From UHGV virus genome UHGV-0287771: a stretch of 25,755 nucleotides of DNA; one strand, given 5' to 3'. The notes under the pieces are model-generated. The model saw only the letters and a list, made by a program, of their open reading frames with translations, ran no database searches and was not told the origin of the DNA. Both the position numbers and the translations under genes were made by a program. Source of the stretch: a virus. Positions 2,328-4,291 of the stretch are shown in pieces (within the stretch, counting starts at the first letter, position 1; every line of letters begins with the position of its first letter).

Positions 2328-2976
2328 TGGCAGCAAATACCGAAATATTTGGGTAGTTGGCGACCTGCACGGATGCTACACCAACCTGATGAAACGGCTG
2401 GACGCTGTCGGGTTCGACCCTGCACAGGATCTGCTGGTTTCGGTTGGCGACCTCATCGACCGCGGCACCGAGAACGTCGAATGCCTAGACCTGATTAATC
2501 AGCCATGGTTCCGCGCGGTGCGCGGCAACCATGAGCAGATGATGCTGGATGCTGTGATGGGTGCCGGAAGTATCCTGCACTGGATGCAGAACGGTGGTAG
2601 TTGGTTCTACAACCTCAATGCCGAACAGCAGATCCTTGCGAAGTCACTGGTCAGCAAGGCGGCAGCACTTCCGCTCATCATCGAGGTGGAGAAGGGCGGC
2701 AAGAAGTTCGTCATCTGCCATGCAGACTATCCTCACGACGAATATGCGTATGGCAGGCCCGTCGATGCAGAACAGGTGATCTGGAATCGTGAGCGAGTGA
2801 GCGCGGCTCAGAATGGGATTGTGAATGAAATATCCGGTGCATACCTGTTTATTTTCGGGCATACCCCGGAGCGCCAGCCTCTCAAATACGCTAACCAGAT
2901 GTATATCGATACCGGCGCAGTGTTCTGCGGAAACCTCACATTGATTCAGGTACAGGGAGAAGGCGCATGGGCATAA
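2305..2976 (+). CDS. ninI: Ser/Thr protein phosphatase, lambda-PPase type (metallophosphoesterase)
   Basis: Metallophosphatase motifs GDLHG, GDLIDRG and GNHE present; start placed at ATG 2305 ([24 protein letters not shown]), which matches the recalled lambda PPase N-terminus, rather than the upstream ATG 2230. Confidence 0.85.
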
Positions 2977-3455
2977 GAGAACTAAAACTCACCAAAGAGC
3001 AGCACGAGTGGCTGAATGGCTGGCTTGAACTGTGGGGCGCATGGGTTTATTCAGGTCGTCTGGAAAAGCGCATGAGCAGCGTAATAGCGAAGTTCATGGA
3101 GAGCGTAGAGCCGGGAAGAGTTATGACAAGGCCAATGTGTAATGATGATGATGGAATGTTGATTTCTCAGGTCGTCGATTCCGTCATGTGCATTGACAAG
3201 AAAGCCTTTGGCATCCTCCTCAGCTACTACGCTCATGGCTCTTCCAAGCACGCCATTGCATCTTACTATCATTGCGTCGCAAGACCTCGCAAGATGTTAT
3301 GCCGTGGCGGCGGGCGCATTCAAAAACCATCGCTCGCAACCTGTCGACGGGAAGTTGACGAAATCCTTAATGCCTCGTTGTTTATGATTTACCCGGTTCT
3401 GGATAGTGCGTTTAAAAATCGGAAACGTGTAGAGAAAATTAAACATGTAGCATAG
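2967..3455 (+). CDS. Q: late-gene antiterminator Q (Q82/QuuD-like family rather than lambda-Q type)
   Basis: 162 aa; occupies the Q position between the nin/PPase gene and the late promoter plus lysis genes; [12 protein letters not shown] and CNDDDGM segments resemble recalled QuuD/Q82-family proteins. Confidence 0.6.
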
Positions 3456-3500
3456 AACGTGTTGACATCATTGAGCAAATGAGCAACACTATTCGCATAA
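3456..3500 (+). promoter_or_regulatory. candidate late promoter (pR'-like) with Q-utilisation region
   Basis: Consensus -35 hexamer TTGACA at 3462-3467 immediately after the Q stop; no clean -10 could be assigned by eye (candidates AACACT, CATAAG). Placement is by analogy with lambdoid late operons. Confidence 0.4.
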
Positions 3501-3545
3501 GCTGCCGTTAGTGACTCTTAAGTTGCAACGGTGGCTTTTTTATTT
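3501..3545 (+). terminator. intrinsic terminator-like hairpin plus U-tract (possible tR'-type early stop)
   Basis: GCUGCCGUU (3501-3509) pairs with AACGGUGGC (3527-3535) allowing two G-U pairs, followed by TTTTTTATTT (3536-3545). Confidence 0.45.
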
Positions 3546-3812
3546 GCACAACAGGTAAGAGCATTGAACCCGCAGGCCTCGCAGGATTGGTGAAAGGTGC
3601 CGCGCAGTGCTCTTATCGTTGTGGTGAATGCGCAGGCTGATGCGCTAACGCTCAGAGGTGAGCACCTAGCTTCGGGCTAGGATGGGTAGCCTCAAGTTGG
3701 AGTTCAGCACCAACCACCGCAACCCAAACTGAGCCGTAGCCACTGGCTATCCTGAATTCATCAGTGATAGTTACGCTGCGGCCTTCTACACATGATCTTC
3801 GTGAAAGCGGGT

Positions 3813-3850
3813 GGCAGGAGGTTGTTAGCGCGACCTCCTGCCGTTTTGCC
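3813..3850 (+). terminator. terminator-like hairpin (10-bp perfect stem) with short U-tract
   Basis: GGCAGGAGGT (3813-3822) / ACCTCCTGCC (3833-3842) with 10-nt loop, followed by GTTTTGCC. Confidence 0.4.
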
Positions 3851-3967
3851 CGTGCATATCGGTCACGAACAAATCTGATTACTAAACACAGTAGCCTGGA
3901 TTTGTTCTATCAGTAATCGACCTTATTCCTAATTAAATAGAGCAAATCCCCTTATTGGGGGTAAGAC

Positions 3968-4291
3968 ATGAAGATGCCAGAAAAACATGACCTGTTAGCC
4001 GCCATTCTCGCGGCAAAGGAACAAGGCATCGGGGCAATCCTTGCGTTTGTAATGGCGTACCTTCGCGGCAGATATAATGGCGGTGTGTTTACAAAAACAG
4101 TAATCGACGCAACGATGTGCGCCATTATCGCCTGGTTCATTCGTGACCTTCTCGACTTCGCCGGACTAAGTAGCAATCTCGCTTATATAACGAGCGTGTT
4201 CATCGGCTACATCGGTACTGACTCGATTGGTTCGCTTATCAAACGCTTCGCTGCTAAAAAAGCCGGAGTAGAAGATGGTGGAAATCAATAA
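3968..4291 (+). CDS. S: class I holin, lambda S type (dual-start antiholin/holin)
   Basis: 107 aa beginning [27 protein letters not shown] with Met1-Lys2-Met3 dual-start motif; near-identical to lambda S as recalled; three hydrophobic segments. Confidence 0.9.

Follow-up and report, generated by a model that had tools for sequence, protein, structure and literature searches.

The viral DNA under study, UHGV virus genome UHGV-0287771, was analysed as a single stretch of 25,755 nucleotides, referred to here as the window. Between the genes for the Q antiterminator and the S holin it carries a non-coding segment (3546-3850), and within this segment the + strand encodes a cloverleaf-shaped RNA core (3616-3726) that belongs to a widespread family of phage RNAs. 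The segment is best read as the late leader, not translated, of a phage of the lambdoid type, in which an “RNA moron” is carried, a tRNA-shaped structured RNA of Proteobacteria phages. The probability of the whole package, namely a transcript from the late promoter PR′, its processing, a stable scaffold and a trans-acting product, is put at about one half, with almost all of the uncertainty residing in the inferred steps. An earlier, preliminary description of the segment had suggested a phage-encoded small RNA or an extended Q-dependent leader. The general idea of a structured non-coding RNA holds, and that interpretation is supported in part only.

The conserved cloverleaf core

The core gives a full match to a covariance model, R1, with a score of 85.2 bits (E ~3e-21) across model positions 1-111 of 111. 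This model was built from 47 sequences, comprising 46 viral or phage loci and the window itself. Though part of the training set, the window independently carries the exact form of the invariant 22-mer, GTGAATGCGCAGGCTGATGCGC, and all of the helices. The assignment of its core to this cloverleaf class, termed subtype A, is firm, and the minimum free energy structure of the isolated core is the consensus structure.

The closing helix, P1, is formed by the 5′ strand GUUGUGGUG (3618-3626) and the 3′ strand CACCGCAAC (3715-3723), a pairing indicated by covariation and by RNAalifold. Across the family P1 has 7-10 bp and usually reads ...GUUGUGGUG / CACCACAAC... A junction, AAU (3627-3629), separates P1 from the P2 hairpin, GCGCA-GGCUGA-UGCGC (3630-3645), which lies inside the exact 22-mer. 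This is followed by the variable arm P3 (3646-3695), in which there are two small hairpins, GCUCA-GAGG-UGAGC (3650-3663) and CCUAGCU-UCG-GGCUAGG (3665-3681). Family members have a P3 of 24-166 nt; the arm of the window resembles no known RNA (Rfam, E up to 10) and was found in no other sampled locus. The P4 hairpin, GUUGG-AGUUCAGCA-CCAAC (3696-3714), is joined to the P1 3′ strand with no linker between them. The family consensus for P4, GCCGG-AGAUCAGCA-CCGGC, abuts P1 in the same manner, and the window departs from it by two compensatory pair changes (CG to UA).

The preliminary description had already pointed out P2 (as GCGCA-ggctga-TGCGC, 3630-3645) and the second P3 hairpin (as CCTAGC-ttcgg-GCTAGG, 3665-3681), and both are present as claimed. 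It had also drawn a longer-range pairing between GTGCTC (3607-3612) and GAGCAC (3660-3665), which was not upheld. Positions 3607-3612 pair with 3559-3564 in a long hairpin 5′ of the core, and on the other side 3659-3663 closes the first local hairpin of P3 with 3650-3654.

The helices are supported by alignments of homologous sequences. In a MAFFT alignment of the 47 sequences, 95.7% of cells are paired, two-sided changes occur in six of the nine P1 pairs and three of the five P4 pairs, and the observed covariation score is reached by none of 500 column shuffles. Sliding the pairing partners in this alignment drops the pairing to 23-52%. A model-based alignment of 106 sequences (A2) contains double changes at 13 pairs, with a score that is again reached in 0 of 500 shuffles. 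Compensatory double changes affect seven of the nine P1 pairs in A2, and the P2 stem occurs in the compensatory variants GCACA/UGUGC, GCGUA/UACGC and GCUAA/UUAGC. RNAalifold independently predicts P1, P2 and P4. The preliminary description had made its case depend on conserved structure among homologues, and strong covariation is present among hundreds of them.

It is further proposed that the loops of P2 and P4 kiss, with GCUGA of the P2 loop (3636-3640) forming 5 bp with UCAGC of the P4 loop (3704-3708). Loop complementarity was studied through a scan for P4-loop variants in which P2 was left unconstrained; in the resulting sample, which is thus enriched for P4-loop variants, 97.1% of cells are paired. 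The commonest changes in the P4 loop, C-to-U and A-to-G, both keep G-U pairs. Watson-Crick pairing is restored by two independent double changes, U-A to C-G (L145, L152 and L153) and G-C to A-U (L134 and L136). Such sequence comparisons make the loop-loop contact likely, but not proven.

Viral contigs with the exact 22-mer number at least 120, and it is also found in 115 genomes that represent bacterial species. Those of the 115 with names are mostly Enterobacterales, Pseudomonadales, Xanthomonadales and Burkholderiales, along with some Alphaproteobacteria, while a few of the 115 are metagenome bins with other labels. In BLAST searches ~45 nt (3603-3649) recur at 90-95% identity in unrelated phages. 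These include P1, HK620, a Stx2 phage, Erwinia phiEt88, Escherichia phage IME11 and Klebsiella phages of ~46-50 kb (T1-like by our own assignment) and of ~158 kb. Among complete genomes of E. coli, 712 of 5426 match 3546-3726 at least partly and two match it nearly in full; there is no RefSeq annotation at the matching loci. The core sequences appear in no paper of the searchable literature, and may sit unnamed in large candidate catalogues. For one such catalogue, with 10,006 entries for candidate structured RNAs of viruses (PMC10690425), the main text does not reveal whether the motif is included.

Variation among the 214 instances with the invariant 22-mer amounts to 160 types of P3, 174 of the upstream part and 166 of the tail. 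A leader of ~150 nt upstream of the 5′ hairpin is common to HK620 (L002, ~1255-1410) and to Klebsiella phage DP01 (L004, ~1235-1385), the latter being unrelated to the lambdoid HK620 and T1-like, again by our own assignment. As these two share this leader, the RNA cassette appears to have moved as a whole between unrelated phage types.

The flanking modules and the genomic setting

The preliminary description had portrayed 3546-3850 as one structured segment of ~300 nt. Structured RNA is indeed present, but as three modules rather than as a single fold: a long 5′ hairpin, the core, and a lambda-like tail with its own terminal hairpin. These modules reassort independently between phages; the window and L015 have a common 5′ hairpin and tail but different P3 arms. 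The mosaic make-up was seen by BLAST against phage genomes, where most of the segment is covered in only 17 records. Folding, which had been suggested as a check, gives -135.5 kcal/mol for the + strand of the segment (z -5.0), a value that 0 of 100 shuffles equal. The - strand has a z of only -2.0, so the extra stability is confined to the + strand.

The long 5′ hairpin (3546-3623, + strand; -35.8 kcal/mol, z -3.6) consists of strand A (3547-3566), an apical “cargo” part (3567-3604) and strand M (3605-3623). Its outer 6 bp (CACAAC/GUUGUG) overlap the 5′ strand of P1. With six bases common to both, the hairpin and P1 are mutually exclusive, and since M overlaps the P1 5′ strand, both A and the P1 3′ strand (C) are complementary to M. 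Each of these two strands covaries with M. In the window, the full hairpin state is predicted at -75.0 kcal/mol and the P1-closed state at -74.5, a difference of 0.5 kcal/mol; the family median for this difference is 2.1 kcal/mol. RNAs that are cut back to 3556 or further 3′ are predicted to fold mostly into the consensus cloverleaf. An equivalent upstream hairpin, spanning 70-135 nt, is predicted in 116 of 117 homologous loci, and the best A-M duplex has a median of 17 bp. The sequences of these hairpins are diverse, with 81 distinct 3′ strands among 105 sequences.

Strand M reads UGCUCUUA at 3608-3615, which we take to resemble the boxA of nut and rrn antitermination sites. Of 207 distinct M strands, 37 contain the pattern [CT]GCTCTT[TA] where shuffling predicts ~0.5, these strands being related by descent. 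As a site for Nus factors this sequence was rejected, as it is lineage-bound and buried in a helix.

The 3′ tail (3727-3812, + strand) is homologous to lambda 44938-45068 and includes a long hairpin at ~3733-3782. The fold of 3727-3850 has an energy of -58.7 kcal/mol (z -6.0), and 3720-3850 is 89% identical to lambda by BLAST. The tail leads into the second terminator-like hairpin (3813-3848, + strand), with a stem of 10 perfect bp and a 10-nt loop, followed by GUUUUG. This perfect hairpin (3813-3842) had been noticed in the preliminary description and is real, at -28.5 kcal/mol and z -4.3. Lambda has the same second hairpin, but the loop in the window (TGTTAGCGCG) is the reverse complement of the lambda loop. 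As both patterns are reverse complements of each other, the orientation of the hairpin was read from its flanks. The lambda orientation relative to the downstream flank is found in 65 of 65 viral contigs with exact 30-mer matches, from which it follows that the window carries a rare inversion of the whole hairpin that leaves the stem unchanged.

The genes on either side follow the lambdoid order. A Pfam search identified NinG, a Metallophos phosphatase and Q (2967-3455, 162 aa, PF06530) upstream of the segment, and the Pfam context places a lambda-type S holin (3968-4291) downstream, then R and Rz. In line with the earlier view of the segment as non-coding, no open reading frame (ORF) of at least 60 aa overlaps 3546-3850; the sole ORF is a 50-aa GTG ORF at 3764-3916. 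The segment had also been called GC-rich, which is true but modest, at a G+C of 0.52-0.59 against 0.38-0.46 in both flanks.

Shortly after the Q stop codon, the + strand contains TTGACA (3462-3467). By analogy with lambdoid PR′ this is likely the -35 box of the late promoter, and a good -10 box is absent. The next feature is a tR′-type intrinsic terminator (3499-3545, + strand), a hairpin at 3499-3537 (-20.5 kcal/mol, z -3.6 against shuffles) with a U-run, CUUUUUUAUUU, that ends at 3545; its earlier recognition was correct. The tR′ of lambda is in the equivalent position, and GCACAACAGGTAAGAGC stands directly 3′ of the terminator in lambda and the window alike. A simple promoter and terminator scan, the loop-length and spacing rules of which are narrow, found no promoter and flagged neither of the flanking hairpins. 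The lambdoid late-leader arrangement of PR′, tR′, leader and S is indicated by the position between Q and S, the tR′ hairpin, and the lambda homology of the 5′ hairpin and of 3720-3850. The Rfam search that had been suggested as a check returned no family in the segment: none reaches the gathering threshold in the window, and 3400-4000 at E up to 10 gives only a chance snoRNA fragment. ARAGORN found neither a tRNA nor a transfer-messenger RNA (tmRNA) in the window.

Related RNAs and the link to tRNA genes

The architecture of the core is also found in STnc100 (RF02076) and in PasD1/PasD2, which are prophage-encoded small RNAs (sRNAs) of pathogenic E. coli and Salmonella. The consensus of RF02076 runs from UGGUG and AAU through a 5-bp hairpin, internal hairpins, CCGGG-AGGCA-CCCGG and CACCA to a tail and a terminator, and the window core presents the same elements in the same order. 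The terminal hairpin of STnc100 and PasD, CCGG(G)-loop-(C)CCGG, directly adjoins the P1 3′ strand, as P4 does here. Both RNAs come from lambdoid prophages, in which they occupy the late region, either close to Q or 3′ of stx2. They differ from the window in the sequences of P2 and P4 and in both loops. RF02076, with a gathering score of 47 bits, has no match in 3400-4000 at E up to 10, nor in the whole window at the gathering threshold. PasD1 of enteropathogenic E. coli (EPEC) has the same P1/AAU/P2 start, but the 3′ strand of P4 has been lost. PasD begins ~10 nt after its own PR′-like promoter, whereas the window element comes after tR′ and behind the long 5′ hairpin. The window core is followed after ~90 nt by a terminator-like hairpin with a short U-run, and the scan predicts no promoter of its own. 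The host range of subtype A is far wider than that of STnc100 and PasD.

Some loci carry a second form, subtype B (GUGGUGAAUGCGGCUAAGCGCA...CACCGGGAGGCACCCGGCACCAC), copies of which occur in phage P1, L084, L087, L098 and L100. These copies are matched by both models, at 25-30 bits with R1 and at 30-43 bits, which is below the gathering score, with RF02076. The window element is therefore a distinct and much more widespread variant of the poorly understood STnc100/PasD kind. PasD was rejected as the same RNA and is a distant relative only. PasA and PasC, which are on the other strand, were also rejected; PasA is antisense to flanking genes and its published fragment is unlike this region. The sRNA P22E of phage P22, located upstream of gene 13, is unrelated in sequence. 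PasD and STnc100 are termed structural homologues in a 2026 preprint. Hfq dependence has been reported for the stability of the Pas sRNAs, including PasD, and STnc100 has been detected by reverse transcription PCR in vesicle RNA, with its role called “unclear”.

The late leader of lambda has the same position and order, with PR′, 6S RNA, tR′ and an untranslated region before S, and the same long hairpin lies right after tR′ (GCACAACAGGTAAGAGCATTG ... CAGTGCTCTTTCCGTTGTG). Lambda keeps the P1 helix with a compensatory change (GUGCUG/CAGCAC), but is without P2 and the consensus P4, and its core is degenerate. It was rejected as a full homologue, as the covariance model finds no core there. The Q proteins also differ, with 162 aa (PF06530) in the window and 207 aa in lambda. 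According to its title, a 1988 paper cited in PMC7547250 concerns RNase III processing sites in the Q-dependent late transcript of lambda.

There is a further likeness to tRNA. P1 corresponds to the acceptor stem and runs without a linker into P4, the equivalent of the T-arm; P2, the equivalent of the D-arm, follows P1 after a 3-nt linker, and P3 takes the place of a variable anticodon arm. This middle arm tolerates insertions, for which engineered “tRNA scaffolds” offer another comparison, and the element has tRNA-like spacing inside tRNA arrays. The complementarity of the P2 and P4 loops recalls the contact of the D-loop and T-loop at the tRNA elbow, although the contact proposed here is Watson-Crick kissing, unlike that of tRNA. 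The core differs also in its P1 of 9-10 bp and in the absence of the T-loop/D-loop consensus, an anticodon and a CCA end. As a tRNA it was rejected, since neither ARAGORN nor the Rfam tRNA model recognises it. A long stem joined to a tRNA-like domain recalls the bacterial Y RNA YrlA; apart from the chance snoRNA fragment, no Rfam family (YrlA included, if in the release) matches 3400-4000 at E up to 10.

The preliminary description had remarked that the interval between Q and the lysis genes is a hotspot for morons and tRNA genes. This is apt, as the family is physically linked to tRNA genes elsewhere. In 18 viral loci, 38 of 38 nearby tRNA genes share the orientation of the element, and in bacterial genomes 16 are co-oriented and three opposed. 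A gap of ~10 nt often separates P1 from the start of the next tRNA, as though the element itself belonged to the array as a unit. In phage P1 (L003) there are three copies (1514-1653, 1943-2049 and 2204-2333) just after tRNA-Asn and tRNA-Thr, of which copy 2 has a compensatory P2 variant and copy 3 is of the STnc100-like subtype.

Fragments of stable RNAs are also found within the element. In L166 (Massilia sp.) the 5′ hairpin carries a complete tRNA-Gly as cargo at its tip, ~80 nt upstream of the core. The leader and trailer of this tRNA (CACACAGC / GCTGTGTG) form a helix that competes with P1. Since the tRNA-Gly is the cargo of the hairpin, strands A and M of this locus are a paired leader and trailer. 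This arrangement suggests that the cargo hairpins of enteric phages are decayed tRNAs, and T-arm-like pieces are present in the cargo or P3 of ~10% of instances. P3 contains a whole tRNA-Pro in L119, a truncated tRNA in L083 (3978-4026, 34 bits) and a 16S-rRNA-like helix in L121 (Rfam SSU match), with near-identical arms in L091 and L101. Directly 3′ of the core in L111 there is an abiF RNA motif (RF03085, 55 bits; 1269-1305), and an int-alpA RNA motif (RF02996; 264-330) follows the core by 40 nt in L073. A Sib antitoxin RNA is located ~220 nt upstream of the core in L045 (1709-1862).

A second recurrent site is found just downstream of cI and co-oriented with it, in 23 viral loci and in L126 (Stx2a_WGPS2, 1389-1652). 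In lambda this position is that of rexAB, so the RNA of the element may be expressed in the lysogen. No conserved gene for a partner protein was found beside the element, the neighbours of which are Q, CI, lysis genes and others.

Proposed function and alternative explanations

For an RNA moron carried in the late leader, the following series of events is proposed. Transcription would proceed from PR′, through read-through of tR′ in the lysogen and through Q antitermination after induction. The long 5′ hairpin would be cut by RNase III or by tRNA-maturation nucleases. This cleavage would remove the competing 5′ strand and free M, allowing P1 to close. The product would be a compact, nuclease-resistant scaffold, the exchangeable payloads of which are P3, the apex of the 5′ hairpin and the ~90-nt 3′ tail that ends in the 3813-3842 hairpin. 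The stable RNA may then act in trans, as proposed for STnc100 and PasD, rather than as a signal required for late transcription.

Several points weigh against this proposal. No transcript, end-mapping or processing data were found for this phage or for subtype-A members, and it is a presumption that the RNase III sites of the 1988 paper fall within this hairpin. Mismatched loop variants exist (C to A, G to A and A to U), and the loop-loop contact is supported by few independent compensatory events. The 3813-3842 hairpin, with four U residues only after its stem, may terminate weakly and bind Hfq poorly. Loss of the P2/P4 core has left lambda fully viable, so the element is dispensable for late-gene expression. 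The near-invariance of 22 + 23 nt from alpha- to gammaproteobacterial hosts also goes beyond what stability would call for and points to a specific partner. It is possible, though rather doubtful as a joint claim, that subtype A is a distinct and undescribed tRNA-shaped kissing-loop class, the P2/P4 face of which binds a universal host machine, with a scaffold for payloads at three sites and a switch triggered by processing. The candidate machines, equally tentative, would be RNA polymerase, the ribosome, a tRNA-processing enzyme or a defence nuclease.

The segment could instead be a cis-acting leader with an aptamer-like or RNA-polymerase-binding core, for which riboswitches and the phage HK022 put RNA offer parallels. 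Read-through of the 3813-3842 hairpin would then depend on which of the two helices forms, the 5′ hairpin or P1, and with it the expression of S, R and Rz or, in other phages, of what follows the element. This is unlikely, albeit in keeping with two exclusive helices that both covary and are close in predicted energy. The usual riboswitch pattern is one of invariant junction nucleotides and a variable peripheral arm, and conservation across Proteobacteria fits a universal partner, such as RNA polymerase or a common metabolite. The element always points to downstream genes, tRNAs or terminators. Some loci have a strong terminator 33-43 nt after P1 and others a ribosome-binding site (RBS) and start codon 24-36 nt after it; the terminator frequencies are qualitative only, as the strict finder under-called downstream terminators. 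However, the competing strand is located upstream of the core and not in a downstream expression platform, and by eye the P1 3′ strand shows no consistent pairing with downstream terminators or RBSs. The downstream genes are mutually unrelated, ranging over lysis genes, tRNAs, small basic ORFs and an RdgC-like protein, and Q already renders RNA polymerase terminator-resistant here. Moreover, the related fold of PasD and STnc100 precedes a functioning terminator, which must terminate because both are discrete sRNAs.

The tRNA-like topology, and the tRNA- and 16S-like inserts in P3 and the 5′ hairpin, have a different appeal in the light of phage defence. The core and the stable-RNA fragments that it displays could mimic host tRNA or rRNA as a decoy, titrating a nuclease, toxin or tRNA-binding factor during infection or in the lysogen. 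The sites downstream of cI and between Q and S are classic for morons and defence genes, an abiF RNA motif is joined to the tail in L111, phage P1 has several copies per genome, and the diversity of payloads suggests an arms race. Yet recognisable tRNA-like pieces occur in only ~10% of instances, the P3 arm of the window is unlike any known RNA, and no defence system or partner protein is consistently linked to the element. The idea is entirely inferential and is given a low probability, below that of a cis-acting leader.

It is improbable that the conserved blocks are relics of mosaic boundaries, that is, DNA “boundary sequences” for recombination of lambdoid modules in which the RNA fold has no function. 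Such features are annotated in the Q-S interval of the CUS-3 record, the modules that flank the invariant core reassort (as in the P3 arms of the window and L015), and the lambda core is degenerate. The pairing of P1, P2 and P4 is nevertheless kept by compensatory changes, the stability is strand-specific and makes use of G-U pairs, co-orientation with tRNA genes is strict, and the element occurs in unrelated virulent-type phages and across bacterial classes. Covariation, strand specificity, co-orientation and wide spread are all unexpected of a recombination linker, which disfavours this explanation.

The identity of a 22-nt core in phages of enteric bacteria, in soil and water Pseudomonadota and in the model phages P1 and HK620 implies very strong selection. 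The core family is new to Rfam 15, which has no model for it, and to RefSeq, which has no annotation. With subtype A, the 5′ domain of the STnc100 and PasD sRNAs can be defined by its structure and placed in a much larger family, and earlier observations that the late leader of lambda is processed are tied to a conserved fold. If either the scaffold-and-payload or the conserved-partner proposal is true, the element would be a new phage route to express or protect small RNAs and a ready-made scaffold for RNA engineering. If it is a stable leader only, it still fills an annotation gap in over a tenth of complete E. coli genomes. The element is tractable in HK620, P1 and lambda hybrids.

Elsewhere in the window, the nin region includes a 168-aa ORF (684-1190) with HNH-type motifs (DHINGVRSDNRLSNLRLVTHQQN). 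From its sequence it looks like a homing endonuclease that has been inserted among the nin genes.

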